DNA from: an uncultured Erysipelotrichaceae bacterium
Lineage (GTDB): Bacteria > Bacillota_I > Bacilli_A > RFN20 > CAG-826
Length of the DNA: 64,000 nucleotides
Direction: 5' to 3'
NCBI GenBank assembly: GCA_902803375.1
Contig: CADCPN010000002.1
Coordinates: forward strand, 47,530 to 111,529
The number at the start of each line of letters is the position of its first letter. The first letter of the stretch is position 1. A program made the translations under genes and the position numbers. The notes beneath the pieces are model-generated. The model did not search any database, was not told where the DNA came from, and worked only from the letters and a program-made list of their open reading frames with translations. Positions 8,573 through 46,468 of this stretch are shown piece by piece.

Positions 8573-8587
8573 AATAGAAACAAGAAC

Positions 8588-9721: not shown

Positions 9722-9723
9722 GT

Positions 9724-22154: not shown

Positions 22155-22181
22155 GAAATCCTCATTTGCAAATGAGATTTT
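22155..22181 (-). terminator. Probable terminator of the opp operon.
   Basis: Imperfect palindrome gaaatcctcatttgc/aaatgagattt. On the minus strand it is followed by cgttttgcttt. Confidence 0.35.
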
Positions 22182-22238
22182 GCAAAACGGGATCCCAAAT
22201 AGGGACCCCGTGCATGCTTAATTGATAAATGATAACAG

Positions 22239-25752: not shown

Positions 25753-25755
25753 GGT

Positions 25756-27726: not shown

Positions 27727-27728
27727 AA

Positions 27729-28766
27729 TTACTTCTTAGCCCCCATTCTGATGCGAGGATCGATGAACCCGTAGGAGAGATCCAGGAAGACTCCCGCCAC
27801 AAGGCCGATAATGGTGTAGAAAGCCATATCCGCCATTAGGACGTTGTAGTCGTTGCTATTAACGGCAAGGATGTAGAGAGAACCGATACCGGAGATGCCA
27901 TATAGCGATTCAAGAATCATTGAGCCGGATAGCAGGCCAATGACTTCGGAAAGGATGCTCGGAAGAATCGGGACCATGGCGTTACGCAAAGCGTGACGGA
28001 CGATGGTCTGGTTTTTGGTAAGGCCCTTGGTGCGGGCAAGAAGAAGGTAATCGGAGCTCATGACCTCAGTAAGCTCGGCGCGGGTGAAACGGGTGTAGCC
28101 GCAGATGGAGCCGAAGCTGAGTGCCATAACGGGAATGACGTAGGAGCGGACCGCGACGCCGAAGGAGGTTCCTTTGGCGACGGACCATTGCGAAGGCAGC
28201 CACCCCGTGTCATAGGCAAGCCACTTCATGAGGAAGGTGATAATGATGAAGGAAGGGATGGAAATGAAGATCATAACCAAGGTAGAGATGATATGGTCGG
28301 TCATCGTGTTCTTCTTTAACGCCGCCCATATGCCTAAGCCAAGGCCGGCCGGGACGGAAATGAGAACGGACCAGATGTTGATCTTAATGGTAAGGGGCAA
28401 TCTCGAGCCGATGATCTTGACGACATCGACGCCAAGCATGATGGAGGAAGAGGTTCCCCAATCGCCGTGGACGACGCCGTTAAGCCAGCTGATGTACTGC
28501 TGCCAGGCCGGTCTAACGTAAAAATAGTGATCAACGCCAGAAGCATCCCTAAAATGCTCCAGCATCGTGCCGTAGCCTGACTGTTCGCTCGTGAAGTCGA
28601 GGACGAAGCCCTTGTTGGTCTGATCTAGATAGTAGGTTAGACGCATCGCTTCCTGGCCAACGGCCTTTGAGAACGGCAGCATTTTCATGAGGAAGAATGT
28701 TGCGGTCAGGATGATGAACGTCGTCACTACGGCCAACAATAATCGTTTAATCGTGTATTTGACCAT
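27729..28766 (-). CDS. oppB: Oligopeptide ABC permease OppB.
   Basis: EAA loop LARTKGLTKNQTIVRHALRNAMVPILP. 345 aa and 6 TM. Confidence 0.8.
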   Translation of the reverse strand: MVKYTIKRLLLAVVTTFIILTATFFLMKMLPFSKAVGQEAMRLTYYLDQTNKGFVLDFTSEQSGYGTMLEHFRDASGVDHYFYVRPAWQQYISWLNGVVHGDWGTSSSIMLGVDVVKIIGSRLPLTIKINIWSVLISVPAGLGLGIWAALKKNTMTDHIISTLVMIFISIPSFIIITFLMKWLAYDTGWLPSQWSVAKGTSFGVAVRSYVIPVMALSFGSICGYTRFTRAELTEVMSSDYLLLARTKGLTKNQTIVRHALRNAMVPILPSILSEVIGLLSGSMILESLYGISGIGSLYILAVNSNDYNVLMADMAFYTIIGLVAGVFLDLSYGFIDPRIRMGAKK

Positions 28767-28855
28767 ATGACATCCTTTCCAGGGTATTCAATGCAATTTA
28801 CCACCAGTATAAATATGCACAAGATAGTAATTTTGCGTCATTGCAAGAAGTGACA

Positions 28856-28890
28856 AAGAGGCGGCGTCCTGTTTCAGGGCGTCGCCTCTT
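28856..28890. promoter_or_regulatory. Intercistronic 14-bp-stem hairpin between oppA and oppB, a candidate mRNA-stability or attenuation element.
   Basis: aagaggcggcgtcc-tgtttca-gggcgtcgcctctt. It is not followed by a T-run on the minus (coding) strand. It sits 36 nt after the oppA stop codon. Confidence 0.45.
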
Positions 28891-28927
28891 GCATTTAGAA
28901 AAAAAACAAGATAACGGAGTTTTTTGA

Positions 28928-31558
28928 TTAGGCCTTGGCCGGGAAACTGACTCTATCAGAAACGTAACCAGAACCAGTGGATTCAGCTCCACCGACGTTC
29001 ATGGTCATGCTGTAATCAATCTCAATGTTCATGCCATCGACAGCGTCGACAATGTCCTTCGGGACCTTGACTTTGATGGTGTCTTCGCCGTCATCAACGA
29101 CGAGGCCATCATCCATAGGCTTGCCGGTGTCATCATCATAGGCGGCAAGGACGTACTTCTGGTCATCGTCATAGACATAGACGTTGGCGATAGAAATTCC
29201 GAGGTTGCCGGCAGCGGCATCAGCAGCGAAGGCTGCAAGAGAGGTCGCAAGGGTGTACTTGATTTCGAAGTTGAAGCTGCCATCGGAGGCAATAGAGCCA
29301 TCGGTAATGGTGTAGTCAACCGGATCAACTTCTTTGCCATCGACTAGCAAGACGCCAGAGTCGGCGGCTTTCCAGAGGGTATCGAAGGACCAAGCATAGC
29401 CATCATAATCGAGATACTCATCGTCAATAACGGAAGTATCCGGGCCCCAGTTGAGGGTGAAGCCAGAAGAGTTGTTGGATTTGAGGACTTCCATGAAGTT
29501 GAGCGGGTTCAAGGTGTTGCCGGAGATGGAGCCGAAGCCCAAGTCGAACTGGCCAACCATGAGGTGCTTGTAGTAGACATCGGACCAAACGGCATCAGCG
29601 GCCTGCTTGACGACTAGCTTAACTTTTCCACCGCAGACGGCTTCGTTGTTGAAGGCTTCGGTGATGTACTTAACGATTTCAACGCCGGACTGCTGGATCT
29701 GCCTCTCATACATCCACTGCATGTTGATGCTGATTTCAGTCGGATTCTCAGTGGTGCCGAGTTTAATATCGCCAGAGGCGACGAGTTCTTCGACAGCGGC
29801 CTTGAAGCACTGGATCGCGATTTCTCTGCTGTAACCATAGGTCTTAGCAACATCATCGCCCCAATAGCTTTCTAGAGCAGCCTTGTGCTCATCGGTCACG
29901 TCATAGGAGATACCATTCTCCGGATCGCTCATATAAGCGGAAGCGAAGTAGTCGACAGACGGGACATAGCCACGGTTCTGGGCATAGGTGAGACGGTCGA
30001 TGGAGAACATCAAGCCATCGAGGAAGTTCTGGTTGGACATCCACGGCTTAACATCCCAATAGTTAGCCTCATCGGTTTGAGCAATGGAACCATTCTTGCC
30101 AAACTTATCAACCCACTGTTCTTTGGTGCAGGAGTTGATGTTGAGCTTGAAGGTAGAATCGCCCGGAACGGAGGTGGTACGTGGGTCGTTTTTGTACTTG
30201 CCAAGGAAGTCTAGCGGGATGCCCGCGGAGTCAAGCTTGCCGGCGAGGAATTCGTTGAAGGCAAGGTTGGAGTCGGTAGAAACGCCCGGAAGGATCGCAG
30301 TGTGGATGCCAGGGATGGAATAGAGGTTGGAATCGGCTTTGGATTCGTACCAGTTCTCATTTCTCTTGAAGGTGATGAGGGAATCTTCCCAGGTCTCTAG
30401 GTAGTACGGGCCAACGGATAGAGAGTTATCAACAGGGGAGAAGCTCATATCCTTGTTGTAACCCTTGAAGTTGGTCGGGTTGGCGCCGTTATCGGTGACA
30501 AGGTTCCAGAACTCCATCGGGAAGGGAGAATATAGGCCGGACGCGAGGTTATACATCGCGTTGAACGGGTTGGTCGGGGTAGCGAGCTCGAAGATGAGGT
30601 AATCACCCTTAGAATCATGGCCAGTGTGAATACCAGAGATATCGGTAGCTTTTCCGTTATAGAAGTCGGCCGCGCCCAAGATAGCGCCGGTGCCAGTCTT
30701 GGCAGCAAGCTCACCGCCACGGTAGTAACCGTTGGCCTTGGTAAGCATGACCTTGAACGGGGTCACATAATCTTCAATGGTGGTATATCTGCCATCGAAG
30801 GCCTTACGGGAGGCATCGGCGGAAGCATTGCGATAGGCAACTCCGCCTTCGGCTCCGGTGCGGACATGGAACTTCCAGGAAGTGGCAAGGGTGTTGGAAT
30901 CATAGCCAGCGACTTCGGTGAAGTTGCCATCAGAGCCCTTAACGACCGGTATCGGACGATCATCGGTGGAGAGGCTTCCCTTCCAGTCATAGCCGTTCTT
31001 GGCGGCATTCATCTTGGTATCCCAATAGCTGCCGGAGATGTTGGCATCGAGGTCGGCGACCTGGGAACCATCGGTGTTGAGGCCGAGGATGCTGTTCGGG
31101 TTGCTCGGCTCATAGTTGTGGAGATAACGCTTGTAGGCGGCGTTGGTCTCGGCATCAAGGTCTTTGGTGATCTTGCCATCGCGGAGGATGGAGAAGCCAT
31201 AGCCGGTGATGTAGTTCTCAGTGCCTTTGGTGATACGGTCGTTATACATGACGTAACCGCCGTTCTCATATAGAGGAAGACCGGTTAGGTAGTTGTTAAC
31301 GGCATAGGATTCGAGTTTGCCGAGGATCTTAGTCTTCTCTGCATAGGACTCGCCTACGTAGGAAGCAAGGCCGGACTTCGGCTCGAGTTTGTCATCCGAG
31401 GATTCAGCTGGGGAGCTGGTCGGGGTGACACTGGAAGTGCCAGGCTCAGAGGAGGCAGCACTGGACCCAGGTTTTTTCTGCGGAGCACCGCAAGCAGCCA
31501 ACGTGACTCCGGCGAGTAAGGCAGAAACCCCAAGGGCGAATAACTTATTAGATTTCAT
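28928..31558 (-). CDS. oppA: Oligopeptide-binding lipoprotein OppA (family 5 SBP), unusually large.
   Basis: Lipoprotein signal MKSNKLFALGVSALLAGVTLAACG followed by a Ser/Pro/Glu-rich linker. It is the first gene of the opp operon. Length 876 aa. Confidence 0.7.
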   Translation of the reverse strand: MKSNKLFALGVSALLAGVTLAACGAPQKKPGSSAASSEPGTSSVTPTSSPAESSDDKLEPKSGLASYVGESYAEKTKILGKLESYAVNNYLTGLPLYENGGYVMYNDRITKGTENYITGYGFSILRDGKITKDLDAETNAAYKRYLHNYEPSNPNSILGLNTDGSQVADLDANISGSYWDTKMNAAKNGYDWKGSLSTDDRPIPVVKGSDGNFTEVAGYDSNTLATSWKFHVRTGAEGGVAYRNASADASRKAFDGRYTTIEDYVTPFKVMLTKANGYYRGGELAAKTGTGAILGAADFYNGKATDISGIHTGHDSKGDYLIFELATPTNPFNAMYNLASGLYSPFPMEFWNLVTDNGANPTNFKGYNKDMSFSPVDNSLSVGPYYLETWEDSLITFKRNENWYESKADSNLYSIPGIHTAILPGVSTDSNLAFNEFLAGKLDSAGIPLDFLGKYKNDPRTTSVPGDSTFKLNINSCTKEQWVDKFGKNGSIAQTDEANYWDVKPWMSNQNFLDGLMFSIDRLTYAQNRGYVPSVDYFASAYMSDPENGISYDVTDEHKAALESYWGDDVAKTYGYSREIAIQCFKAAVEELVASGDIKLGTTENPTEISINMQWMYERQIQQSGVEIVKYITEAFNNEAVCGGKVKLVVKQAADAVWSDVYYKHLMVGQFDLGFGSISGNTLNPLNFMEVLKSNNSSGFTLNWGPDTSVIDDEYLDYDGYAWSFDTLWKAADSGVLLVDGKEVDPVDYTITDGSIASDGSFNFEIKYTLATSLAAFAADAAAGNLGISIANVYVYDDDQKYVLAAYDDDTGKPMDDGLVVDDGEDTIKVKVPKDIVDAVDGMNIEIDYSMTMNVGGAESTGSGYVSDRVSFPAKA

Positions 31559-33729: not shown

Positions 33730-35334
33730 TTATTCGGCAGCTTTGGTGGTGTCGATGAGCTTGGCGTCTCCGATGAAGTTGCGAACAGAGGTGGCGGCAG
33801 AGATGGCGGAATCCTTAGACGGATAGGTTTCGCCCATGATCATGACGGCTCCGTTGTCGGAGAAGACCTTGAACTGATAGCGGTTCTGCTTATCTCTGGA
33901 GATGGTCATAGAGCCGGCAAGGACTTTGGCCTTGACCTTCTCGATGGCGCTGAGAACAGCGTTCTTGGAGGAATAGGTGGAGGTGACGAACAAGACAGCG
34001 CCGTTGGAGGCGATGAGCTGACCGATCCACTTCTTGGTCTCTTCATCGATAGAGACTTCGACTTTGCCGTTCTTGGTCGGGGTGACCGGGGCGAAGTCGA
34101 TGGTCCATTCGCGGACTTCTTCTTCCGGGATCTCGTCGAGGTCGACGATCTTCTTGGCATCATAGAAACGCTCAACGGAATTCAAAGCGTTCTGGGCGTT
34201 GACGGCGGTCGGATAGATTTCGCCGGCGACGACTAGGCGGGAATCGTTGGCCGTGAAGATACGGAACTGGCTGTAGCCGTTCTTATCGGTGATGATCTTG
34301 GTGGTTCCGCCCGGGACGTTCTTCTTTAGGGTGGCGATTCCAGCCTTGGCGCCCTCGCGGGTCTTATAGCCATTGGAGACGATGAGGATTTCACCGTTGT
34401 TGGCTTTTAGGCGATATTTGAAGAATCCAGCTTCCGGGAAGACTTCGTATTTGCCGACGACTTTGGACTCTTTGGCTTTGGCTTTCGGGGCAGCGGCGAC
34501 AGCTGGCTCTTCCTCGACAGGGGCAGACTCTTCAGCGGTTTCCGGGGCAGACTCTTCGGCGACGGGCTCTTCGGACTTTTCGTCGGCAACGGATTCTTCA
34601 GCCTTGCCTTCGGCCGGCTTCTCCTCTGGCGCTTCTTCCTTCGTTTCGGGCTCGATAGCCTTAGCAGCGGATTTCTTGGCTTTGGCTTTCTTGGCGGGTA
34701 GAGCCTTCATTTCTTCCTCAACAGGGGCAGCCTCTTCGGCGACAGGTTCTTCCTGCTTCGGTTCTTCCTTGACCGGCTCTTCGGGCTTTTCTTCCTTAGC
34801 AGGTTCTATAGCGACAACGGCTTCTTCCTGCTTCGGTTCTTCCTTGGTTTCTATAGCGACAGGTTCTTCGACTTTCTCTCCGGTGGCCGGTTCCTCGGCG
34901 ACGATAGTAGCTTCCTTCTTACCGGAAAGGCCAAAGACGATAGAAAGAATCATGGCGATTAGGCCAAGTAGACCTGCAACGCCAGCAAGGATGGCGTGAA
35001 CCTCTGATAGGCTGGCCTTAATGTCTCTGACCGGGGTCAAAGCCATAAGTCCACCGACGATGCCGATCAAGGCAAGGAATGCCGGAAGGACAAAGGCCGG
35101 CTTCTTCTTGGCGAGGACCAAAACGAGGGCCACGACGAAGAGAAGGGCTCCGCAGACGCAGCCAACGCTGAGCGTGAGGGCAAATTTTCCCTCACCCTGG
35201 AAAGCGAGTCTGGCGATGTTCTCGCCAGCAAAGGTGACGTTGAAGCCAACTAAGGCGAGTGCCACGACTGCAAGTGCGGCAGCCACGGCCGCGATTGCAG
35301 TCGTGCAGATGAATTTTCCTTTCGTGTTTTTCAT
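33730..35334 (-). CDS. Membrane-anchored protein with an N-terminal TM bundle, an acidic Pro/Glu/Lys/Ala-rich linker and four tandem DUF1508 (YegP/UPF0339) repeats.
   Basis: Four repeats: FKYRLKANNGEILIVSNGYKTREGAKAGIATLK; FRIFTANDSRLVVAGEIYPTAVNAQNALNSVERF; WIGQLIASNGAVLFVTSTYSSKNAVLSAIEKVK; YQFKVFSDNGAVMIMGETYPSKDSAISAATSVRNF. The start is set at MKNTKGK (35334), upstream of 3-4 TM helices. Confidence 0.55.
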   Translation of the reverse strand: MKNTKGKFICTTAIAAVAAALAVVALALVGFNVTFAGENIARLAFQGEGKFALTLSVGCVCGALLFVVALVLVLAKKKPAFVLPAFLALIGIVGGLMALTPVRDIKASLSEVHAILAGVAGLLGLIAMILSIVFGLSGKKEATIVAEEPATGEKVEEPVAIETKEEPKQEEAVVAIEPAKEEKPEEPVKEEPKQEEPVAEEAAPVEEEMKALPAKKAKAKKSAAKAIEPETKEEAPEEKPAEGKAEESVADEKSEEPVAEESAPETAEESAPVEEEPAVAAAPKAKAKESKVVGKYEVFPEAGFFKYRLKANNGEILIVSNGYKTREGAKAGIATLKKNVPGGTTKIITDKNGYSQFRIFTANDSRLVVAGEIYPTAVNAQNALNSVERFYDAKKIVDLDEIPEEEVREWTIDFAPVTPTKNGKVEVSIDEETKKWIGQLIASNGAVLFVTSTYSSKNAVLSAIEKVKAKVLAGSMTISRDKQNRYQFKVFSDNGAVMIMGETYPSKDSAISAATSVRNFIGDAKLIDTTKAAE

Positions 35335-35846
35335 AAAATTTCTCCCTTTTATGTTTTTTGGAAAACAACAGTCTATATTGTCCTCATTTTTTGGGTTTCT
35401 TACAAGAAGCAGGAATTTTTTACTCTTTCTCACATATAAAAGAGGTGATAGGTGCATCGATTTTTGTGTGAAAGCATTTTTTCCTGCCGGGAAAGTGAGT
35501 GGTTTTTGTATAGATACGCGTCTGTTTGAGCAACGACCACGTTCGCCATGAATGGGAAGAAAAAAGCACAGCGAATCTCTCCGCCATGCTTGATTTCGGC
35601 TTTAGCCAGAAGGGGTGATATGATTCCTCTTAGTCAAGAGGTGGGCGTCCATGGTCAGCCATCAGGATTCCCAAGCGGTTAGGTTGGGCATTCAACACCG
35701 GCGTCTCCAGTCAGGACTCCCTAGATATCAAAATGTAGGGGAACAATGTTCCTTCTGGCCCACTAGAATTGCTTCTAGCAAGACCATTATATATCCCGAA
35801 CTTCTCCAATAGGGAAGGGGGAAGGCTAAGATGAAACAAATGCTTA

Positions 35847-38800
35847 TTATTTGGACTTCTTAGAGTTGGATTTTGTAGCAGGAATCTTAGCTTTTTGCTC
35901 TTTTTCCCTAGCAATTTCCTCTTTCTCTTTTTCTGCCAAAGAGGCCTTCATTTTAGCGATGCGCTCTTCTGTTTTGCGCTTTTTCTCCTCTTCCGCTAAT
36001 TTTTTGCTTTCCTCTACTTTCTTGGCCTCTTTCTTTGCCTTCGCCTTCTTGGCGATGGAGACAATGAGCCAGACAAGGAGAACGAGAACGGCGCCACTAG
36101 CGGCTGCCAGGGTTAGCCATGCCCAAGTCGGAAGAATTTCCTTCTTGGCCATTTCGTAGCTGAAGCGTTCGCCGGTGGAATAGGTGAAGAGATAGCGGCC
36201 AGAATCATACTTGGAGTCGATCTTGGCGAGCTTAGCGCCGCTTCCTTTATAAAGAGTGGCGCCTTCTTCCATCTCGAGCTTCACGTTAACGTCTTTGACG
36301 CTAATCTCCTTGCCGTCGCAATAGAAGCGGAGGATATAGCCATCATAGGTTTCTTCCAAGATGACGGAGGTGCCTTTCTTGAAGAGGCCGGTGACGATGA
36401 CTTTGGAATCGGAAGTGAAGAGGCTGGTGGAAACCTCTTCGTAGCGGGCATAAACCTTCATGGAACTATCCACATCGCTAGGGAGATCCCAAGATGCGAA
36501 GTAGGAGGCCTTGTCGCCAGAGTAAATCATGTAGCCATCTTTTTCAGAGGCATAGAGGAAAGCCGGGGCTTCCTTGATTTTTTCGCCTGCGAATAAGCGG
36601 ACATAGGAGTTAAGGGAATAGGCATCCTTATTGAGGGAGCCGTCTTCCTTATAAAGATCGCCATTCTCCTCGCGGAATTCCATGAAGGAGACAAGATATG
36701 CGATTCGAGAGTTCTTCTTCGCGACCTCGCTCATCTTGTCCTTATGGGCGTCGAAGAGGGATTTGAAGGAGGATTCGTCGCCATAGGCGTCGTTATCCTT
36801 AACCTCTTCGAAGCAGCGGAGTTCTGGATAGGCTTTGCTATCTTCTCCTGCCTGATAGGCTTCGGCGTCGAAGTGGAGACTTAGATTCGGGGAAAGAGAA
36901 CCGTTGGAAGCAAGGGCTTCAGGAGCGAGGGCCTTGGCTGCGTCATCGTAGGAGGAATCATATTCCGCTTTATCGATGCCGCCTAAGGAACCGACGTAAT
37001 AGTTCCACTTGATGGAGGTGGAGAAAGAGTTGGTAGCGGAGACGAAGGTGGTAGCCTCGCCTAGGAGCGCGCCTTTATGCGCGGAGGCATCCTCATTGAG
37101 AATCTCAACGTTGCTGATGCAGGAGGTCATGTCGCCAGAGAGGGTGCCGGCGATGCCGCCGACATAATCTTCGCCGGAAACTTCGGCGGAGGAATAGGAA
37201 GAGGCGACGTTTAGCGCGACGCCGGCGATGCCGCCGACGTGCTTTTTGCCTTCGACTAGGCTAGAGGCAAGGCATTCTTTGATGCTGCCTTTGGCCATGG
37301 AGCCGGCGATGCCGCCGACGTTCTCGCCGACGCTGCCTTTAACGTGACCGTTGTTGAGGGAATGGGTAAGGGAAAGATCGGCAGAGCTATTGAAGCCGAT
37401 GATGCCGCCGACGTTGCTCTTGCCGAGGACTTCGCCATAGTTTGCGGAATAATCCACAACGGCTTTGGCACCGTCGTATTGCTCATCAAGCTCTTCTTCG
37501 TTTGGGAAATATTCCTTCATGAAGCCTTCATAGCCCATGGCGTTGAAATACTTCTCTAGATCGGCGTTATTCTGCTCAACTTTGCCATAGTAGCCGGAGA
37601 TGCCGCCGACATAGCGGTCTGCGGTGACGGAGGCATCGTTGGTCGCGAAATAGATCTCGCCGTTGCTGACGCCGGCGATGCCGCCGACGTAGATCGCGGA
37701 GTTAGATGAAGACACACTGGCCTTATTTTCAACATCGGAGATCTTGCCAGCGCTATATCCGGCGATACCGCCGAGGTTGACGAGGGTGATGTTCTGGTTG
37801 CTGGATTGGCCGAGCAGGGTACCTTCATTTTTGCTGGAGGTGATCTCGCCTAGGTTTAAGCCAGCGATGCCGCCGACGTCGTTGGCGCCGGAGGTAACCG
37901 CAGTAGAGGTAATCTTGGCAAGCTTGCCATAGCGGAACTGCTTGGTGCTGTCAGAAGTCTCATTGTCCTTATATTCGCTGCGGCCGTTCTCTGCGGCAAA
38001 GCCGACGTAACGTCTGCCTTTTAGGAGGCCGGAGATGGAACAGGAATAGACTTCGCCATAGTTATGGCCAATGACGCCGACATAGTCGTTATCAAGGCAA
38101 TCGAAGTGAGCGTTCTCGATGTTCAGCCTTTCAACGCAGCCATCTTTGGCAAGGGTATTGAAGATGTTATAGGAGGAGGAATTCTTGTCGAAATAGACGT
38201 TGCGGAAAGAATGGAATCCGGCATCAAGGGTGCCCTGGAAATAGGAAATCGGGGTAAGGGAGGTGCTGGAGAAATCGATGTCATTAGTAAGGCGGACGAT
38301 CTTTTTCTGGCTATAGGAGGCGGAGGCGTTGCACTTATCCGCGAATTCATTCCAGCCCTTCGCCGTTGAGATGAGAACCTCTTCGGTGTCTTTCTCCGGG
38401 TCGACTTTCGAGAACTTGTAGTGGCGGCCTAGGCCATAGACGTGTTCCTCGGAAAAGAGGAGAGTGTAGTCACCCGCATCCTCGATTTCGATGTGCTTGG
38501 TGCCGTTTTTGTATTTGTTCTCACCATCGGTGATGTAGAAAGACATGCCGCCCCGCGGGACGACGAGGTCATAACGATATTGCTTGTAGTCCTCTTCGTA
38601 ATACTCCTGAGATTCGGTGATTTCCTTCATCTCGTATTTGTCGTCGAGAAGGATGTCGCCGTTGTCGCCATAAAGATATCCGTTGAGGTCAGAGGCGATG
38701 TAGAAGCCATTATAGGAGGCGGTCTCTTCCTTATAGGTCACCGCGACGTTGTTATCTACGTCAGTGAAGGAGAACGTGTACCAGCCGCGGTCGGCGATGG

Positions 38801-39833
38801 TAAGGGTCATGGAGGCCTTTCCCTTTTTGTCCTCGTCTTCGCCTAGCCTCTTATAGCCGCCTTCTTCCTTCTCGTAGACGGAATAGTGGAGGACGAGGTC
38901 CTCTTCGCCGACATAAAAGGGTTCCGAGTTGTAGGTGGCAGGAGAGAGGACGGATTCATCGCGGGTTAGGGAATAACCCTTTTCGGTATTGGAGATGTCC
39001 GTAGGCTCAGCTTTGGTAAGAAGGTTTTCGTGAAAAGAGAGGAAATAGGCGGGGGCGTCTTCGATGTAGATGTGGTACTGGTAATCAGAACCGGTGCCGT
39101 AATTGCCATTCTCATCGAAGAGGAATTTCTGTAGGCCCACTTCCTTGCCAGGGGTGAAGAGGATGCGGTAGCTGCCGTCGGCGGAGATCACATGGGACTC
39201 CTTCTCATAGGCGACGACATCGTCCTTCTTCAAATCGATGGAAGAGATGTAATAGCAGTCGTAGGCGCTTTGATAAGGATTATAGGTGAGAGGCGTATCC
39301 GTTCCGTTCACGGAGATGGAGTACTCCTGCTTCTCGTAAAGCTTATAGGTGACGTGGCTAGAGGTGGCTTTGAAGCCATCCTTCTCCTCGTTATAGGTGG
39401 TCTTGGGATTGAATCTGACGGTATAGGTCAAAGCGGTCTTCTCATCGCTGAGGAAAGACTCGCCTTTGCTGTCGCCATAGCGGCTGCCATCAGAGCCCCC
39501 GACGTAGAAGGAGGTGCCGGTGGGGAGATAGACCTCATCCAGCTCATACTCGCCATCATCAAGAAGGGTCATCTTGTGGGAGCTGCGCTTGGCATAGTTC
39601 TCGGTGCTGATGCAGACGAAATAATCGTAGACGGGCGCTTCTTCTTCCTCAGCCGATGTATCCGGGCTTTCAGTATCGCTCGGGGTGTCCTCACCCTCAG
39701 CCGAGGTTCCTTCGGATGGAGTATCATCAGCTTTCACGGTTAATGGGCTAGAGGGCATCGCCGAGATGGCGAGGCCGCTTAGCAGCATTAAGGCGGAAAG
39801 AGTCATCAATTTTGAGGCTTTAGTCATTTTCAA
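35847..39833 (-). CDS. Giant (1328 aa) secreted/surface protein with a signal peptide, an acidic linker, Gly-rich repeats carrying a recurring VGGIAG core (GLUG-motif-like), a single C-terminal TM anchor and a ~65-aa Lys/Glu-rich cytoplasmic tail.
   Basis: Signal MKMTKASKLMTLSALMLLSGLAISAMP. Repeat cores VGGIAGLNLGEI, LGGIAGYSAGKI, VGGIAGVSNGEI, VGGISGYYGKV, VGGIIGFNSS, VGGIAGSMAKGS, VGGIAGVALN and VGGIAGTLSGD. Anchor WAWLTLAAASGAVLVLLVWLIVSIA followed by KKAKAKKEAKK.... Confidence 0.6.
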   Translation of the reverse strand: MKMTKASKLMTLSALMLLSGLAISAMPSSPLTVKADDTPSEGTSAEGEDTPSDTESPDTSAEEEEAPVYDYFVCISTENYAKRSSHKMTLLDDGEYELDEVYLPTGTSFYVGGSDGSRYGDSKGESFLSDEKTALTYTVRFNPKTTYNEEKDGFKATSSHVTYKLYEKQEYSISVNGTDTPLTYNPYQSAYDCYYISSIDLKKDDVVAYEKESHVISADGSYRILFTPGKEVGLQKFLFDENGNYGTGSDYQYHIYIEDAPAYFLSFHENLLTKAEPTDISNTEKGYSLTRDESVLSPATYNSEPFYVGEEDLVLHYSVYEKEEGGYKRLGEDEDKKGKASMTLTIADRGWYTFSFTDVDNNVAVTYKEETASYNGFYIASDLNGYLYGDNGDILLDDKYEMKEITESQEYYEEDYKQYRYDLVVPRGGMSFYITDGENKYKNGTKHIEIEDAGDYTLLFSEEHVYGLGRHYKFSKVDPEKDTEEVLISTAKGWNEFADKCNASASYSQKKIVRLTNDIDFSSTSLTPISYFQGTLDAGFHSFRNVYFDKNSSSYNIFNTLAKDGCVERLNIENAHFDCLDNDYVGVIGHNYGEVYSCSISGLLKGRRYVGFAAENGRSEYKDNETSDSTKQFRYGKLAKITSTAVTSGANDVGGIAGLNLGEITSSKNEGTLLGQSSNQNITLVNLGGIAGYSAGKISDVENKASVSSSNSAIYVGGIAGVSNGEIYFATNDASVTADRYVGGISGYYGKVEQNNADLEKYFNAMGYEGFMKEYFPNEEELDEQYDGAKAVVDYSANYGEVLGKSNVGGIIGFNSSADLSLTHSLNNGHVKGSVGENVGGIAGSMAKGSIKECLASSLVEGKKHVGGIAGVALNVASSYSSAEVSGEDYVGGIAGTLSGDMTSCISNVEILNEDASAHKGALLGEATTFVSATNSFSTSIKWNYYVGSLGGIDKAEYDSSYDDAAKALAPEALASNGSLSPNLSLHFDAEAYQAGEDSKAYPELRCFEEVKDNDAYGDESSFKSLFDAHKDKMSEVAKKNSRIAYLVSFMEFREENGDLYKEDGSLNKDAYSLNSYVRLFAGEKIKEAPAFLYASEKDGYMIYSGDKASYFASWDLPSDVDSSMKVYARYEEVSTSLFTSDSKVIVTGLFKKGTSVILEETYDGYILRFYCDGKEISVKDVNVKLEMEEGATLYKGSGAKLAKIDSKYDSGRYLFTYSTGERFSYEMAKKEILPTWAWLTLAAASGAVLVLLVWLIVSIAKKAKAKKEAKKVEESKKLAEEEKKRKTEERIAKMKASLAEKEKEEIAREKEQKAKIPATKSNSKKSK

Positions 39834-42195
39834 TATCCTCCTTTGGGGTATAGGTGATCATGAAGCGACCAGACTTGCGTTTTTTAAGGATCTCTCTGCC
39901 ACGGGAGAAGGCGTTCTGCTTCTCGGAGAGGGCCGTCTTGTCGATGAGGGGGTCCCATAGCAAGATGAGGGCCGGCATGACGAGAAGTGCGCTGGCGATG
40001 GAGATTAGGCAGCCACGGCATAGGCAGGAGCCAAGGGTGGCGATGAGCGGGTCACCGACGATGACGCCGATGAGGAAGCTTGCGGAGATAAGGATCGTGC
40101 CAGAGGTAAGAATGGTCGGGAAGCTTTGGTTGATGGAATCGATGATGGCCTGTTTCTTATCCGTATAGGTCTTGCGAAGCTCGGTGTAGCGGTTGGTGAT
40201 GACGATCGCGTAATCGATGGTCGCGCCCATCTGAATGGCCGAGACGATGAGGTTAACGAAGAAGTAACAGTTGATTCCGGTTAAGAAGAAATAGGTGAAG
40301 TTGATGAAGATGGCACCCTGGATGACGAGACATAGCGGGAAGGGGATGCCCCAGTTCTTGAAGGTGATGACCAAGACGACATAGACGAAGACGAGGGTGA
40401 GGATCGTAACGACGAGGTTATCCTTGGAGAACGTCTTGTTGAGGTCGTAGTCCGCCATCGCGTTGCCAGCGAAGATGACGTCGGGGTACTTGCCTTTGAT
40501 GGTCGTATTCAGACGTTTGATGAGAGCGAAGGTCTCAGGTGCTTCTTCCGCCGCGCCGATCTCGAAGACGACGCGGGAATAATTCGGGCCGATGAGCTGC
40601 TTTTCGGCATCGGTGATCTGACGTTTGATGTCGTTATAGGAGTCGATGGCATCAGGCTTATCGTTGAGGGAGGCGCGGATAAGCTCATCATGGGAGAAAG
40701 CAACGTCGCAGAGGTCGAGGAGCGAGACCTTATAGTCAAGCTTGTTGGCCTCATAGATCAAGACCTCCTCCGCGGAATCGCGGGTGTCCTCTTTGCAAAG
40801 CATGGCGTAGCCGGAGTAGATCTTGTCGCTGGCGGCATAATCGATATTGATGAAATCGGCGAACTGCTTGTAGTTGATCTTCTCGGGCAGGTAGTAGCTG
40901 ATGTCGTTTTTGGTAATCTGGGTATTGGCGATGCCCTGCGCCTTTCTCACAAGCGGCTCTTCGGAGACGGTATTGAGGATGTCTAATTGCTCAGCGTAAT
41001 CATTGCCAGGCATGACGATGACGAATTGAGTGCTGTAGCCGAAGACGTTGCTGATCTCCTTTTCGGCGATCATCGCGCTGGAGGGGCGCTCGGTATCGAT
41101 GGAGTTCTCCGCGTAGACGTAGGTGACTTTGTTAGAGGCATATAGGCAGACGCCAGCGAGGGCGATGTAGAGGAAGGGCATGACCCATTTGGTGTGGCCC
41201 GCGAATTTGCCGAGGAAGTTGACCTTTGGGACAAGGGATTTGTGCATCGTCTTGGAGATCGGCTTATCAAACATCAAAAGCAAGGCCGGCATGACGAAGA
41301 AGACGGAGACCATGCTCCAGACAATGGACTTGGCGAGGACGATGCCAAGGTCAGCGCCCAGCTTTAGCGACATGGTGCAGAGGGCAAGCATGCCGGAGAT
41401 GGTGGTAAGGGAGGAGCCGAAAATTTCAGGAATGGCTTTGCTAAGGGCATTCACCATGGCCGTTTCGGAGTCACGGGTGAACTGTTTTTCCTCCTGGAAG
41501 CGGTTTGCCATGATGATCGCGTAGTCGATGGCTAACGCCAGCTGAAGGATGACGCACACAGACTTTGAGACAAAGGATATCGTTCCTAGCCAATAGTTCG
41601 TACCCATATTGAACAAGGCGGCGATGCCGAATGTGGCCAGGAATACTGGAACCTCCATGAAGGATTCTGAGGTAATCAGCAAGACGACGATGATGATAAT
41701 GACGACGAACACCAAGACGAAGTTAATGGACTGCTGAAGGGTATCCGCGTAGTTATCCGTCAAATCGACGGAGACGTAATACTCATGGTCTGAGAGGAGG
41801 GTCTTGATGGTATTGAAGGCGTTGACCGTGATCGGATCGTCTTCCGTGCCTTCAAAGGTAACCGTGTATTTGGCGCAGGCATCCTTGTAATAGTCCGGGG
41901 TGTTATAGAAGTCGAACGGCTTCACGCCTTCGACGTCTTTGATCTTCTCATAGAGGTCGTGGGCCTCTTCATAGGAGATGTTCTTAACCATGAAGCTCGT
42001 AGAGCCGAAGGTATAGAACTCCTTGTCCATGATGTCGAGCGCGCGGCGGGTATCGGTGGTCTCATCAAGATAAGAGGAGATGGAATATTCGACTTTGGTC
42101 TGGGTCATACCATAAACGCAATAGCCGGCAAACCCAAGAAAAAACAGAAGGATGATCTTTCGGAATTTAACAACGAACTCAGCGATTTTTTTCAT
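39820..42195 (-). CDS. MMPL/RND-superfamily membrane transporter (YdfJ-like).
   Basis: 791 aa. Two 6-TM bundles (~aa 160-330 and 600-770), each preceded by a large extracytoplasmic loop. A 14-nt overlap with the downstream giant-protein gene indicates co-transcription. Confidence 0.6.
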   Translation of the reverse strand: MKKIAEFVVKFRKIILLFFLGFAGYCVYGMTQTKVEYSISSYLDETTDTRRALDIMDKEFYTFGSTSFMVKNISYEEAHDLYEKIKDVEGVKPFDFYNTPDYYKDACAKYTVTFEGTEDDPITVNAFNTIKTLLSDHEYYVSVDLTDNYADTLQQSINFVLVFVVIIIIVVLLITSESFMEVPVFLATFGIAALFNMGTNYWLGTISFVSKSVCVILQLALAIDYAIIMANRFQEEKQFTRDSETAMVNALSKAIPEIFGSSLTTISGMLALCTMSLKLGADLGIVLAKSIVWSMVSVFFVMPALLLMFDKPISKTMHKSLVPKVNFLGKFAGHTKWVMPFLYIALAGVCLYASNKVTYVYAENSIDTERPSSAMIAEKEISNVFGYSTQFVIVMPGNDYAEQLDILNTVSEEPLVRKAQGIANTQITKNDISYYLPEKINYKQFADFINIDYAASDKIYSGYAMLCKEDTRDSAEEVLIYEANKLDYKVSLLDLCDVAFSHDELIRASLNDKPDAIDSYNDIKRQITDAEKQLIGPNYSRVVFEIGAAEEAPETFALIKRLNTTIKGKYPDVIFAGNAMADYDLNKTFSKDNLVVTILTLVFVYVVLVITFKNWGIPFPLCLVIQGAIFINFTYFFLTGINCYFFVNLIVSAIQMGATIDYAIVITNRYTELRKTYTDKKQAIIDSINQSFPTILTSGTILISASFLIGVIVGDPLIATLGSCLCRGCLISIASALLVMPALILLWDPLIDKTALSEKQNAFSRGREILKKRKSGRFMITYTPKEDIEND

Positions 42196-42353
42196 TTTCT
42201 CCTCCTGTACGTTTATTGATATTGGTGTATTGTTATGTACACAGCTGTAATTGCTGCGTCATAACCATACACAACAAGACCGCATGGTCAACCAGCCAAG
42301 GGCTGAACATTATAACATGCTGTATAGTTATCAATATAGGAAGGAAATATTGT

Positions 42354-42947
42354 ATGAGTGAAACCAAAGACGACGTTCGCGTTAGAAGAACCAAGAAATC
42401 CCTGCGCCTAGGACTCATGGAATTATTGAAGGAAGAGCCCTTCGAGAAGATCTCCGTCAAAGACATCTGCGAGAGGACCATGATCAACCGCATGACCTTC
42501 TACGCGCATTACAAAGATAAGTATGACCTCTTAGACGATGCGATCAAAACCCTAGGGCAAGACATCTGGAAACAGTCGGTGAAGGAATCCGTCCTCGACT
42601 TCAGAGTCGATGGCCCGGCCGTCGCCGCGAAGGTCTCCGCCAACGTCATCGAGACCTGCTACAACCACCGTGATGAGATCTTCTCCATCACCAATTCCAA
42701 TAACGGGCTCGCCAGCCAGGTCCTCATGACCTCCATCACCGAGCTTGTCACCAAGCTATTCGACTCCATCGAGCAGCATTACCACCTCCGTTATGACAAG
42801 GGCTTCATGGTCAGCTTCCTCGTCGGCGGATATTCCGGTATTGTCATGCATTGCCTCGAGCAGAAGACTTTCGACAAAGCAGTCGTTGAAAGAACCTTCT
42901 ACCAGGTTGTCAATGATGCCCTCAAAGGCGGCGTCGTCACCAAATAA
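42354..42947 (+). CDS. TetR/AcrR-family transcriptional regulator, divergent from the MMPL gene.
   Basis: HTH region RRTKKSLRLGLMELLKEEPFEKISVKDICERTMINRMTFYAHYKDK. The start at 42354 follows AGGAAGGAAAT. The track start at 42216 is rejected. Confidence 0.7.
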   Translation: MSETKDDVRVRRTKKSLRLGLMELLKEEPFEKISVKDICERTMINRMTFYAHYKDKYDLLDDAIKTLGQDIWKQSVKESVLDFRVDGPAVAAKVSANVIETCYNHRDEIFSITNSNNGLASQVLMTSITELVTKLFDSIEQHYHLRYDKGFMVSFLVGGYSGIVMHCLEQKTFDKAVVERTFYQVVNDALKGGVVTK

Positions 42948-43103
42948 GGTCACCCGTTCATCTATTTTTGGCGTTTCTCGTTGTGGAGGGACGCCTTTTT
43001 CCAACGTTTCGTTATCTTTGCCATGCTAAGGCAAACAATCAGTCGGTATTCTCATTGACTAAAGAAGTGCTTGGTCTTATGTTTCCCTTGATGGGGAACT
43101 AGT

Positions 43104-43994
43104 ATGAAGAACTATATAATCAGCTGCACTTCTACCGTCGACCTCTCCAGAGAGCATCTAGAGAGCCGCGATATCAAGTTTATCGCCTTCCACTTCAATC
43201 TCGGTGGCAAGGACTATGAGGATGACTTAGGCAAGTCCATCCCGTTCGTCCAATTCTATGCCCGCATCGCCAAAGGCGAGATGACCAAAACCTCCCAGCC
43301 CGCGACGGGAAACTATGTCGAATACTTCAAATCGCTTCTAGAGAAAGAAAACAAGGATATCCTCCACGTCTGCCTTTCTTCTGGCCTCTCTGGCGACTTC
43401 AATTCCGCGACCCTCGCCGCGAATATGGTCCTCAGCGACTTCCCGAACAGAAAGATCATCGTCGTCGATTCTCTCGGTGCTTCTTCTGGCTACGGCCTAT
43501 TGATGGATAAGCTCGCCGACCTTCGCGATGAAGGCATGGGCTTTCTAGAGTTGGCCTCCTGGGCCGAAGAGCATAAGCTCGAAGTCCACCACTGGTTCTT
43601 CTCTACCGATCTCAAGTATTACGTCAGAGGCGGAAGAGTCTCCGCCACCAGCGGCTTCATCGGCAATCTTCTCCACATCTGCCCGCTTCTCAACATGGAC
43701 GATCAGGGACACCTCTGCCCCAGAGAGAAAGTTCATGGCAAGAAAGCCGTTATGAAAGCCATCGTCGAAAAGATGAAGCAGTTCGCCGAGAACGGCCTCG
43801 AATATGCGGATAAGGTCTATATTTCCATGTCCGCCTGCATGGAGCTCGCCGAACCCGTCGCCAAGATGGTTGAGGAAGCCTTCCCGAAGATGAAGGGCAA
43901 GGTTGAGATCAACAATATCGGCACCACCATTGGTTCCCATACCGGTCCAGGCACCGTCGCCCTCTTTTTCTGGGGCAGCAAGCGCGGCGCTTAA
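43104..43994 (+). CDS. DegV-family fatty-acid-binding protein (FakB-like).
   Basis: Typical DegV N-terminus YIISCTSTVDLSREHLESRDIKFIAF. Length 296 aa. Confidence 0.8.
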   Translation: MKNYIISCTSTVDLSREHLESRDIKFIAFHFNLGGKDYEDDLGKSIPFVQFYARIAKGEMTKTSQPATGNYVEYFKSLLEKENKDILHVCLSSGLSGDFNSATLAANMVLSDFPNRKIIVVDSLGASSGYGLLMDKLADLRDEGMGFLELASWAEEHKLEVHHWFFSTDLKYYVRGGRVSATSGFIGNLLHICPLLNMDDQGHLCPREKVHGKKAVMKAIVEKMKQFAENGLEYADKVYISMSACMELAEPVAKMVEEAFPKMKGKVEINNIGTTIGSHTGPGTVALFFWGSKRGA

Positions 43995-44045
43995 TCGAAG
44001 ATAAGAAAAAACGTTAGATGCATTTGTGCGCCTAACGTTTTCGTT

Positions 44046-44777
44046 TTACTTAATCGCTTCCGCTTCTTTGCTTTCGCGCAGGAAAGCATCTTCATCGCCA
44101 AGGCCAGCGCTCTTCAGCATCATCATGCCTAAGAGGAATCCGCCTTGATAGATGATATTCACGGAGATCTGAATCCAAGCCCATTCGTAATAACGCTTGG
44201 TGGAAAGATATCCCATGGATACCATCGCGAGGATGGAGATGATAAACAACACGGCAGCGCCTGGCTTCTTCATGCGGAAGGCCATATAGGTGAGCATGAT
44301 AAGCATGCCGGTCGCGCCGATGACCATGATCACGATGAAGGGGAGGGAGGATTCATAGACCTTCGCTTCCGCAAACGCCGCGGCGAGGATTAAGGGAAGG
44401 GAGATCGTTCTCACTTTCGTATAGTTTTTGTTGTGCTTGGTAAACATGCCTACCAACGCTAGGAAGATAACCAAGAACCCCAAGGACTGCGTGCTCGTGA
44501 ATTGCTTATCGAGAATCACGTAATCGATGGAGGCGATGCCGAGGAGGAGCTTATGCATCGCCTTTAAGACGCCAGCCACGAAGATCATGACCGAGCCGCT
44601 GGCGAGGAGGGCATAAGCCCCCTTCACCATTTTGTTATAGAAGCAGCGGAGCATGATGACTCCTCCTGCTAGAAACAGGCAAACAGGAACAAGGTCGTAG
44701 ATGGCCTGAAGAGCCATTCCCCAGCCGGGGGCTTCTCCAAGAGGGGTCTCAGTGAGGAAGGTAATCATACAATCCAC
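44046..44777 (-). CDS. Integral membrane protein (about 7 TM), hypothetical. It is the last gene of the TetR-led module.
   Basis: 243-aa hydrophobic ORF with a 13-nt overlap with the DUF1295 gene. Confidence 0.4.
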   Translation of the reverse strand: MDCMITFLTETPLGEAPGWGMALQAIYDLVPVCLFLAGGVIMLRCFYNKMVKGAYALLASGSVMIFVAGVLKAMHKLLLGIASIDYVILDKQFTSTQSLGFLVIFLALVGMFTKHNKNYTKVRTISLPLILAAAFAEAKVYESSLPFIVIMVIGATGMLIMLTYMAFRMKKPGAAVLFIISILAMVSMGYLSTKRYYEWAWIQISVNIIYQGGFLLGMMMLKSAGLGDEDAFLRESKEAEAIK

Positions 44778-45610
44778 TTCCAGTTGATGATGCTCTTAAC
44801 AGGGATGAGGCGGAAGAGGATTGGGGTCTTCTTCACATAGGCTTGGTATTCAATGTCTTCGCCATAGCTCTTGTTCTGTCTCTTCTCAAGACGCTTGGCG
44901 CCGGAAAGCATGACATAGACGAGGCAAAGGTAGCCGAAGATGGCGACAACCCACTGGGCCCAGCCATTGAGGCAGTTGCAGCCAGAGACGAACACGCCGG
45001 TCCAGAACAAGATTTCGCCGAGGTAGTTCGGGCAGCGGACATAACGATAGAGTCCGGTGTCGACGAAACGCTTCGGATTAACTTTTTTGGCGGCGGATTT
45101 CTGGTGGTCAGCGGTGCTCTCAAGGATGAGGGCAAAGACCATGATGGCGGCGCCGAGCAAGGGAAGAACGATGTTGGCAGTGCCTTCATATTGTTCGTTC
45201 ATCGTGCGATAGAAGATCGGCGAGACTTCACAGACATAAAGGACGATAACGGAGATCCAAATCGTGAAAAGGACAAAGAACGGTACCTTCTTTTCCTGTT
45301 TCTTGTCATAGATTTTGTCAAATCTCTTCTTGAAGGAAGCGGACTTGGCTTCGCGATAGATCAAGAAGCCAGAGAGACGGCAGCCATAGACGATGAGGAG
45401 GGCGCTTAAAATGAATCCCTGCCATCCCATAGACGGCATAAGCGGAGTGAAACTCATGACCATCATGGAGATGGAGAGCATGGCAATGGCGATGCCGTAG
45501 CCAACGCTCATGAAATAGACGAGCTTATAGAATCCGATGGCGCATCCTAACGCGGCAACGATAGCAAGGACAGCGATCGCCAGCGGAAATGCGGCTTGGA
45601 GAGCTTCCAT
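44765..45610 (-). CDS. DUF1295-family membrane protein (steroid 5-alpha-reductase / ICMT-PEMT-like methyltransferase fold).
   Basis: GLYRYVRCPNYLGEILFWTGVFV matches the GLYRYSRHPNYFGE family motif. 281 aa and multiple TM. Confidence 0.55.
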   Translation of the reverse strand: MEALQAAFPLAIAVLAIVAALGCAIGFYKLVYFMSVGYGIAIAMLSISMMVMSFTPLMPSMGWQGFILSALLIVYGCRLSGFLIYREAKSASFKKRFDKIYDKKQEKKVPFFVLFTIWISVIVLYVCEVSPIFYRTMNEQYEGTANIVLPLLGAAIMVFALILESTADHQKSAAKKVNPKRFVDTGLYRYVRCPNYLGEILFWTGVFVSGCNCLNGWAQWVVAIFGYLCLVYVMLSGAKRLEKRQNKSYGEDIEYQAYVKKTPILFRLIPVKSIINWKWIV

Positions 45611-45613
45611 GTC

Positions 45614-46468
45614 TTATTTCTCCTTCGGATAACGGGACTTGATGTATTCGGCAAAGCTGAGGTTGCCATACATGGTGTCGCCGACGAGATCATGGGTGAG
45701 GGTCCACTTGGAGAAGCGGATGAGCGCTTCTTTGTTTCCGCCTTCCTTCTTGGCCTTCTTGGCGAGTAGGTCAAAGAGGAACGCAGGAGCCCTAGAGATC
45801 TTGCAGGGCTTGCCGGCAGCGGCGAAGAACATCTCCGCGATCTGCTTGTAGGTGTAGGACTCTTTGCCGCCGATGGAATAGGTCTTTCCGTCGTCTTCGA
45901 TGTGCTTGACGATGAAATCGGCGAGGTCGGTGGTGTCGATGACGTTGCAGGGGAAGTCCTTATGGCCGAGGAGGGTGACTTTGCCCTTCTCAATCATCGG
46001 CATGAAGACCTTGGCGATGTCATAGAAATATCCGGTCGGGCGGAAGATGACATACTTAAGTCCAGAAACCTTTAGCTTCTCCTCGAACTGATGCTTGGCT
46101 TCGAGCATCGGGACGTTCGGGTCGCTATCGCATTTAATGACAGAGACATAGCCGAAGTTCTTAACGCCCGCGGCTTTGGCTTCCTTGAGGATGGCAAGGT
46201 TGCCATTGAGGTCGATGTCGTAGTTGGAGAGGGTCTTGCTCTTGCCGACGAGACCGACGGTGGTGATGACGGCGTCGCAGCCATCGCAGGTGCCCTTAAG
46301 GGTCTCCGGCTTGGTGACGTCGATGATCTTGGTTTCGAATTTGCCTTCGTACCCTGGCATTTCCTTTGGTTTGATATCGCAGGCGACGACGCTGTGGCCA
46401 GCATCGATTAGATGGCGAAGGATGTCGCTTCCGAGGTTGCCGAAAGCGCCAGCTAACATAACTTTCAT
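45614..46468 (-). CDS. NAD(P)-binding Rossmann-fold oxidoreductase (NmrA/atypical-SDR-like).
   Basis: N-terminus MKVMLAGAFGNLGSDILRHLIDAGHSVVACD is a GxxGxxG dinucleotide fold. Confidence 0.5.
   Translation of the reverse strand: MKVMLAGAFGNLGSDILRHLIDAGHSVVACDIKPKEMPGYEGKFETKIIDVTKPETLKGTCDGCDAVITTVGLVGKSKTLSNYDIDLNGNLAILKEAKAAGVKNFGYVSVIKCDSDPNVPMLEAKHQFEEKLKVSGLKYVIFRPTGYFYDIAKVFMPMIEKGKVTLLGHKDFPCNVIDTTDLADFIVKHIEDDGKTYSIGGKESYTYKQIAEMFFAAAGKPCKISRAPAFLFDLLAKKAKKEGGNKEALIRFSKWTLTHDLVGDTMYGNLSFAEYIKSRYPKEK

Follow-up and report, generated by a model that had tools for sequence, protein, structure and literature searches.

The window considered here is a stretch of 64,000 nucleotides (nt) from an uncultured Erysipelotrichaceae bacterium (contig CADCPN010000002.1, positions 47,530 to 111,529 of the forward strand), and all coordinates are given in its own numbering. 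Within it lies a three-gene cassette that encodes a TetR-family regulator of 197 amino acids (aa; 42354..42947, plus strand), an MMPL/RND transporter of 791 aa (39820..42195, minus strand) and a giant type-I membrane protein of 1,326 aa (35847..39827, minus strand). The regulator is identified by a TetR_N match and an external gene call, the transporter by Pfam family PF03176, and the giant protein by its open reading frame, translation and external gene calls. The TetR gene is divergent from the MMPL gene, the two being separated by a control region of 158 nt (42196..42353), and the giant gene follows the MMPL gene in the same direction. The original prediction had placed these three reading frames correctly. 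The MMPL and giant genes are strictly co-inherited and translationally coupled across deep divergence, and the arrangement is best read, from the sequence, as a two-gene operon under a divergent TetR.

The coupling is evident at the junction of the two minus-strand genes (39820..39843, minus strand), as judged from the positions of the Shine-Dalgarno sequence, start and stop codons. The 3′ end of the MMPL gene contains a strong Shine-Dalgarno sequence, AAGGAGGA (39843-39836), 9 nt before ATG 39827 and a mere 3 nt from an alternative start, TTG 39833. The ATG overlaps the MMPL stop codon TAA (39822-39820) as ATGACTAA, and database gene calls hold a 1,326-aa form of the giant protein beginning MTKASKL. 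On the basis of the Shine-Dalgarno spacing and the database form, ATG 39827 is the most likely start of the giant gene and the overlap is therefore 8 nt. A length of 1,328 aa and an overlap of 14 nt had been proposed; both hold for the maximal reading frame from TTG 39833 only. The proposal that the two genes are co-transcribed fares better, since they overlap or abut and a consensus scan of the window finds neither a sigma-70-like promoter nor a terminator at the junction.

The assignment of the 791-aa protein to the MMPL family is secure. PF03176 matches with E 9.6e-43 and 146.8 bits against a cut-off of 20.5, in two stretches. Hydropathy analysis places hydrophobic clusters at approximately residues 14-32, 157-309 and 594-746, with TM7, the seventh transmembrane (TM) segment (approximately 337-357), falling below the threshold used; the intervening loops are about 125 and 240 aa long. 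This pattern of two hydrophobic blocks suggests roughly 12 TM segments with two large extracytoplasmic loops, the layout expected of an MMPL protein as two pseudo-repeats of six. Two Asp-Tyr pairs, D224-Y225 (41526-41521; LALAIDYAII) and D661-Y662 (40215-40210; GATIDYAIV), occupy the fourth and tenth hydrophobic segments, and the motif is found in at least 110 of 120 homologues. Asp-Tyr pairs that act as a proton relay in TM4 and TM10 have been described for MmpL3. The intact pairs, and the fact that homologues share them, fit an active proton-driven transporter, and the pump looks functional on this evidence.

The specificity of the pump is less readily assigned. No named NCBIfam subfamily is reached; MmpL3, HpnN, BstA, HAE3 and actII all score far under their cut-offs, the best scores being 147.4 against 874.7 for actII (TIGR00833) and 140.2 against 351.9 for HAE3 (TIGR00921), with the model of the trehalose monomycolate (TMM) exporter MmpL3 at 28.7 against 1400. 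The closest relatives of solved structure are MmpL5 and MmpL4 (E 1.5e-12). Homologues in sequence databases are numerous, with 7,603 at E<=1e-20.

The regulator matches TetR_N with E 7.4e-7 and 29.3 bits against a cut-off of 24, which bears out the prediction of a divergent TetR protein, and the helix-turn-helix (HTH) covers approximately residues 22-61; TetR_C_8 matches weakly. Its start is most likely ATG 42354, in agreement with an external gene call, which gives 197 aa in place of the 243 aa first proposed. A terminator-like hairpin and T-run found by consensus scan 3′ of the gene (42970..42995, plus strand) separate it from the downstream DegV gene. Matches in the PDB are confined to the HTH region (DhaS-like, 4mk6), and the match to the DhaS model is sub-threshold. 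As the resemblance to solved structures is limited to the HTH, the ligand cannot be inferred.

The control region carries promoter hexamers for the MMPL strand, a −35 element TTGACC (42291-42286) and a −10 element TATGGT (42269-42264), both on the minus strand, followed by a Shine-Dalgarno sequence AGGAGGAG at 42206-42199. A 13-nt inverted repeat, GTGTATGGTTATG/CATAACAATACAC (42272-42260 and 42237-42225), has one arm over the −10 element and the other over the 5′ leader, and a degenerate palindrome of the type ATAC-N4-GTAT, ATACACCAATAT, lies at 42230-42219 on the minus strand. The −35/−10 pair and an element AACAATACACC are common to the window and its closest relatives, loci L003 and L009. 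In eight of 17 homologous intergenic regions we find ATAC-N3-5-GTAT, compared with 0.3 expected from shuffled sequences (maximum 3), and the ATAC-N4-GTAT palindrome is a plausible candidate for the TetR operator. Binding at such a site would give repression of the MMPL and giant genes by TetR.

The giant protein begins with a signal peptide (approximately residues 3-35, with a hydrophobic segment at 9-27) and an acidic linker rich in Asp, Glu, Ser, Thr and Pro (36-66), encoded together at 39636..39827 (minus strand). The linker reads DDTPSEGTSAEGEDTPSDTESPDTSAEEEE and is variable or absent among homologues. An N-terminal all-beta region follows (approximately 67-480; 38394..39635, minus strand), delimited by the strands of an AlphaFold2 (AF2) model. 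Invariant Tyr, Trp and Gly residues are abundant here, identity among homologues is 36-45%, and Foldseek gives low-probability matches to beta-sandwich and beta-trefoil modules. The central part, approximately residues 485-955 (36969..38381, minus strand), is a right-handed beta-helix of GLUG type, as indicated by PF07581, AF2 and Foldseek. It contains eight exact [V]GG[I]xG repeats, at residues 653, 687, 716, 742, 808, 839, 866 and 891; the spacing is 25-34 residues with one gap of 66 residues, and a conserved helical excursion of 40 residues (756-795; 37449-37568) breaks up the beta-helix. The membrane-proximal C-terminal domain (C-domain; approximately 956-1235; 36129..36968, minus strand), a long helix and then two beta-sandwich modules, carries the family signature. 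The protein ends in a TM anchor and a cytoplasmic tail rich in Lys and Glu (together 35850..36110, minus strand). The TM helix comprises residues 1242-1260 (36054-36110), and the tail (35850-36047) has 66 residues, 22 of them Lys and 14 Glu. Inspection of the sequence thus agrees with the signal peptide, acidic linker, eight or more Gly-rich repeats and single C-terminal TM helix noted in the original prediction. The charged tail, also noted there, is present, but its long form is not conserved across the family.

The likeness of the repeats to the GLUG motif stands up. Searched with the repeat region alone, PF07581 matches in four stretches with E 8.1e-6 and 26.4 bits against a cut-off of 20.5; with the full-length protein no match is reported, and three of nine family members match when searched full-length. 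The AF2 model, which covers residues 66-1244 and was built on nine sequences, has a mean predicted local distance difference test (pLDDT) score of 81, with values above 90 across most of the beta-helix. A Foldseek search of the PDB places a beta-helix at the top, as had been anticipated for the repeat region: 3n6z, Bacteroides ovatus BACOVA_03286 annotated as a ‘putative IgA1 protease’ (probability 1.0, E 2.3e-3), and then streptococcal IgA1 protease (7uvl and 7jgj, probabilities 0.99 and 0.97), the E values of these matches extending up to 8.7e-2. For the top two, 3n6z and 7uvl, the E values are no better than 2e-3 to 5e-3 with the whole chain as query. Viral structures that match share the same type of helix; the weak matches include phage tailspikes and also pectate lyase 3vmv. 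In IgA1 proteases the beta-helix is a rigid, non-catalytic module for substrate binding and gating (PMC7695701).

The C-domain modelled alone has a pLDDT of 67 and resembles generic beta-sandwich accessory modules of glycoside hydrolases. A profile search with it against 1.84 billion representative sequences returns 64 at E<=1e-3 and 30 at E<=1e-30. The family profile of the giant protein has no match among PDB sequences. No catalytic family is matched in Pfam, NCBIfam or PDB sequences, and no accessory family of the MmpS or HlyD type in the same collections. Neither the M26 protease domain nor the G5 domain (both Pfam), nor the motifs HExxH and LPXTG (searched as LPx[TSA]G), are found in the protein. 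The repeats do not belong to a well-characterized adhesin family of known function, GLUG and the beta-helix alone being matched.

Three assignments for the cassette can be set aside. The giant protein is not an IgA1 protease, as it is without an M26 domain and without HExxH. It is not a sortase-anchored adhesin either, because LPXTG is absent and the anchor is a TM helix with a charged tail. PADLOC models give no match to the three proteins at E<=1e-3, and a role as a defence system is therefore rejected.

The strongest evidence concerns the association of pump and giant protein. In every examined locus with upstream sequence, approximately 25 distinct loci, an MMPL gene lies directly upstream of the giant gene, with identity falling to 25-30% for the giant protein and 39% for the MMPL protein. 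The distance from MMPL stop to giant start, measured in approximately 20 distinct loci, ranges from −68 to +20 nt; one locus, L028, is apparently frameshifted. A first homology search gave eight relatives with 34-99% identity, all on contigs with an MMPL gene of about 800 aa directly upstream and with a divergent TetR gene wherever the sequence allows. A scan at species level, using one genome per species, added 14 metagenome-assembled genomes (MAGs), the labels of which include uncultured Bacillales, Christensenellaceae, Clostridia and Candidatus Coproplasma. By tblastn, each locus with enough flank has the order TetR, MMPL (52-69% identity), giant (34-43%), and a scan of metagenomes gives the same gene order. 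Starting from the pump, a look-up of two MMPL homologues (P0080 and P0016) finds a giant partner downstream of both, and one of the two belongs to a cluster present in 225 index blocks, corresponding to hundreds of metagenome contigs. Four remote members recovered by the C-domain profile were looked up and have identities of 25-30% for the giant protein and 39-50% for the MMPL protein, all directly behind an MMPL gene; in the loci examined this domain family is seen solely beside MMPL. The survey of synteny suggested by the original prediction thus recovers the adjacency in every examined locus, the pump-side loci and the most remote members included.

The hosts are uncultured gut and rumen Firmicutes, Clostridia-type bacteria, and the exact proteins of the window are present in several metagenome assemblies. 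A cultured species is represented by a record labelled Monoglobus pectinilyticus (NZ_OY725729.1, locus at 3684-10530), where RefSeq annotates a TetR/AcrR regulator, an MMPL family transporter and a "hypothetical protein", and through which the cassette is experimentally reachable. TetR homologues, 28-42% identical, occupy the same divergent position in most loci; in locus L001 the presence of an upstream TetR gene cannot be judged. Flanking genes vary between loci. The window neighbours DegV, DUF1508 and RarA are not found in related loci by tblastn or in the metagenome scan, and DegV/FakB, DUF1508 and RarA are accordingly rejected as parts of the module. Genes of integrative or mobilisable elements stand directly beside the cassette in two unrelated loci: a serine recombinase, TnpW and a Mob_Pre relaxase in L024 (2242-7200), and a VapE-like gene, Tn916-Xis and a tyrosine integrase in L041 (1-2000). 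Together with the patchy taxonomy of the MAGs, these neighbours may point to horizontal spread of the cassette.

Two architectures of the giant protein occur, a long form of approximately 1,220-1,500 aa and a short form of approximately 975 aa that is without the N-terminal region. Beta-helix, C-domain and TM anchor make up the invariant core of the family. All complete partners have these three elements, the C-terminal TM helix being followed by a basic tail, and each also has either a signal sequence or a lipobox; these features place the giant protein beside the extracytoplasmic loops of the pump. In the short members, L026 (10475-13420) and L030 (6252-9173), a linker rich in Ser and Glu replaces the N-terminal region. 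The lipobox of L026 (LASC) indicates a lipoprotein, which would be anchored at both ends, by lipid and by TM helix. The Monoglobus homologue (L043, 9420-12959; NZ_OY725729.1) has 1,179 aa and also lacks the N-terminal region; it carries a long cytoplasmic tail rich in Lys, Glu and Asp and, near the position of the 40-residue excursion in the window protein, an insertion of about 330 residues in which Ser, Asp and Leu abound and which is probably helical. The helical excursion seems to be an arm of variable length. A Lys/Glu-rich tail of more than 50 aa is confined to the window protein, L026, L030 and the Monoglobus homologue, the other relatives having tails of 6-29 aa.

What might the two proteins do together? 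The interpretation put forward in the original prediction, a dedicated surface-structure or export module, is supported, and we develop it as follows; the pump and the putatively adhesin-like giant protein would act jointly in export or in forming a surface structure. The explanation that we favour, with a probability of roughly 45%, is a functional pair formed by a TetR-repressed, proton-driven exporter of an amphiphile or lipid and an extracytoplasmic partner. The MMPL protein would use the proton-motive force to export a membrane-active amphiphile or an envelope lipid. Translation of the giant gene would be coupled to that of the pump, and the product would be exported by the Sec pathway and retained by its C-terminal TM helix. 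Its ectodomain, predicted to have beta-sandwich modules at the far end, then a rigid GLUG beta-helix and a further beta-sandwich domain close to the membrane, would stand beside the pump on the outer face of the membrane. There it would most likely serve as the extracytoplasmic accessory of the exporter, in docking or as an acceptor or scaffold for the extruded substrate, by analogy with MmpS and mycobacterial MmpL proteins. Recognition by TetR of the substrate, or of an amphiphile related to it, would lift repression of the two genes. Pump and giant protein would form an obligate functional pair. The coupling persists over deep divergence while the flanks change, which argues for a joint function that known systems do not explain. 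The cassette may be relevant to the way these bacteria tolerate amphiphiles from host or diet, or to the construction of their surface.

Several points weigh against this explanation. The nature of the substrate and physical contact between pump and partner are inferred. The GLUG helix of IgA1 proteases binds protein, not lipid (PMC7695701), and the GLUG beta-helix is a generic structural module without a defined function of its own. The sequence of the TM helix in the giant protein is poorly conserved (11-42% identity). As most loci were reached by way of the giant protein, just two test whether members of the MMPL subfamily occur without the partner. On the regulatory side nothing informative in the PDB or NCBIfam matches the ligand domain of TetR, the copy of the palindrome in the window itself is degenerate, and TetR is missing upstream in loci L019 and L042, so that the regulator is usual and not obligatory.

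Some of the same observations can be accommodated if the two proteins are co-expressed but independent. The MMPL protein would then be a conventional efflux pump under TetR control, directed at toxic amphiphiles (fatty acids, bile acids or compounds from plants, for example), and the giant protein an autonomous adhesin or glycan-binding protein answering the same envelope stress with no physical or mechanistic tie to the pump. The ectodomain modules are typical of surface adhesins and carbohydrate-active enzymes, and for the beta-sandwiches Foldseek returns glycoside hydrolase accessory domains. The giant protein also has a Sec signal peptide of its own, its N-terminal region is dispensable in some members, and its TM helix is not conserved in sequence. 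Yet the two genes remain adjacent with overlapping codons at all loci, even where identity is as low as 25% and none of the flanking genes stays the same, the C-domain family is found beside MMPL alone, and independent genes rarely stay translationally coupled over such distances. We regard independence as unlikely on balance. Were it correct, the finding would reduce to a FarRE-like efflux operon and a new family of surface proteins.

The strict, one-to-one and translationally coupled pairing would also be expected if the giant protein were itself the ‘substrate’, with the MMPL protein as a biogenesis factor resembling SecDF that uses the proton-motive force to pull, fold or release a beta-helical ectodomain of 1,200 residues. 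Long beta-helices frequently require assistance in folding, and the MMPL protein weakly matches the SecD/SecF and SecDF models (E 3.3e-6 and 1.1e-5). These matches are far weaker than those to MMPL and HAE3 (E 1e-41 to 1e-43) and stem from the transmembrane core that RND proteins have in common, a TetR switch suggests a small-molecule signal, and short members keep the pump despite a much smaller ectodomain; we consider such a role very improbable. An equally slender chance is given to an envelope-polymer module, in which the pump would export a glycolipid or lipid-linked polymer and the beta-helix protein would act on it as a lyase, epimerase or transferase, or anchor it. Right-handed beta-helices are common in polysaccharide-active enzymes, as the weak matches to pectate lyase and tailspikes recall, and lipid-related genes lie near some cassettes, namely DegV and DUF1295 in the window, a patatin in L003, Lit in L038 and a GDSL lipase in L001. 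These neighbours hint at a lipid theme and are not conserved. Against a polymer module, no catalytic family is matched in the giant protein, its best fold matches are non-catalytic GLUG helices (3n6z and IgA1 protease), and no gene for a glycosyltransferase or for polymer synthesis is a conserved neighbour.

A bolder proposal can also be framed. The MMPL pump and the giant GLUG protein could make up an RND machine of a hitherto unknown type, found in bacteria with a single membrane, in which a proton-driven transporter is permanently joined to a long, rigid, beta-helical extracellular arm and the arm carries or receives the exported lipid across the wall or is assembled by the pump. The giant protein would then stand for a new class of RND accessory and define a small envelope system of lineage-restricted distribution among Firmicutes of gut and rumen. 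We judge it distinctly unlikely as it stands.

The surroundings of the cassette in the window deserve brief description. Directly downstream of the giant gene, at 35599-35764 (minus strand), the model of 6S/SsrS RNA is matched over its full length but below threshold (RF00013, model positions 1-187; 26.9 bits against a gathering threshold of 46.4, E about 1e-3). The element keeps conserved core motifs, and a 292-nt stretch here folds better than shuffled sequences (z −2.7). A 12-bp hairpin with a T-run (35564..35591, minus strand) comes immediately after. This is the first terminator-like hairpin downstream of the operon, and its position directly 3′ of the 6S-like element means that it may terminate that RNA instead of the operon. 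The element is probably a divergent 6S RNA gene, situated between the giant and DUF1508 genes. In L003, L008 and L009 no 6S-like element follows the cassette, and the RNA is for this reason rejected as part of the operon. A fluoride riboswitch (RF01734) is present at 52299-52372 (plus strand; 40.6 bits against a gathering threshold of 34).

The DUF1508 gene (33730-35457, minus strand) encodes a protein of 534-575 aa with hydrophobic N-terminal segments, a long low-complexity linker rich in Glu, Pro, Lys and Ala and three DUF1508 repeats (PF07411, E 9e-29), an odd membrane-tethered form of a small domain. An operon for an Opp-type ABC transporter (19796-31558, minus strand) has unusually large subunits, with ATPases of 592 and 581 aa, in which the ABC_tran match is split in two stretches, and a permease of 656 aa. 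It is flanked by proteins of 876 and 756 aa without a Pfam match at E<=1e-5, one of which may be a divergent substrate-binding protein. Beside the TetR gene, at 43104-46468, stands a set of genes with a lipid flavour: a DegV/FakB-like gene on the plus strand and then, on the minus strand, genes for a 243-aa protein without a Pfam match, a DUF1295 protein (steroid-reductase-like) and an NmrA/NAD-binding protein. The set is not conserved beside the cassette at other loci.

How does the cassette compare with systems already described? The TetR regulator, the MMPL pump and the GLUG beta-helix are each of a known kind; an MMPL pump obligately paired with a giant TM-anchored beta-helix protein is undescribed in the searchable literature. 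No paper combining GLUG and MMPL was found, the GLUG motif or domain appearing in incidental mentions alone, and with RefSeq calling the partner a hypothetical protein the view that the module is uncharacterized holds. Except in mycobacteria and Staphylococcus aureus, little is understood of the RND/MMPL pumps of Gram-positive bacteria, and their accessory proteins are few and small.

SecDF, like the MMPL protein, belongs to the RND superfamily; it is powered by the proton-motive force and acts at the outer face of the membrane. The pump described here gives weak matches to the SecDF models, many orders of magnitude weaker than its matches to the MMPL family. The giant protein shares the PF07581 motif and a right-handed beta-helix with 3n6z and with the N-terminal domain of M26 IgA1 proteases. 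It differs from these GLUG proteins in having a helix of approximately 470 residues as opposed to approximately 270, a helical excursion and a TM tether of its own, and in lacking M26, HExxH, G5 and LPXTG.

In mycobacteria an MMPL pump is encoded beside a single-pass membrane accessory with a beta-rich extracytoplasmic domain. MmpL4 and MmpL5 with MmpS4 and MmpS5 are the relevant examples, since these pumps are the closest solved relatives of the window protein and the arrangement, an MMPL pump with an accessory, is comparable. The MmpS proteins are about 140 aa long, encoded upstream and anchored at the N-terminus. The giant protein has no sequence relationship to them that we could find, and unlike them it is about ten times larger, encoded downstream and held by a C-terminal anchor, with a GLUG beta-helix at the centre of its structure.

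The nearest parallel in gene layout is FarR/FarE of S. aureus, where a TetR-family regulator is encoded beside a divergent MMPL-type RND pump responsible for inducible efflux of fatty acids (PMC10019231). In both cases the organism belongs to the Firmicutes and the TetR gene is divergent from the gene of an MMPL/RND pump; we count this as a Firmicutes precedent for the layout, and it supports the reading of a TetR-controlled exporter with its partner. FarE is not known to have a co-transcribed giant partner. The pump of the window type, in contrast, is always accompanied by a downstream beta-helix protein of 975-1,500 aa that is anchored in the membrane by a TM helix.

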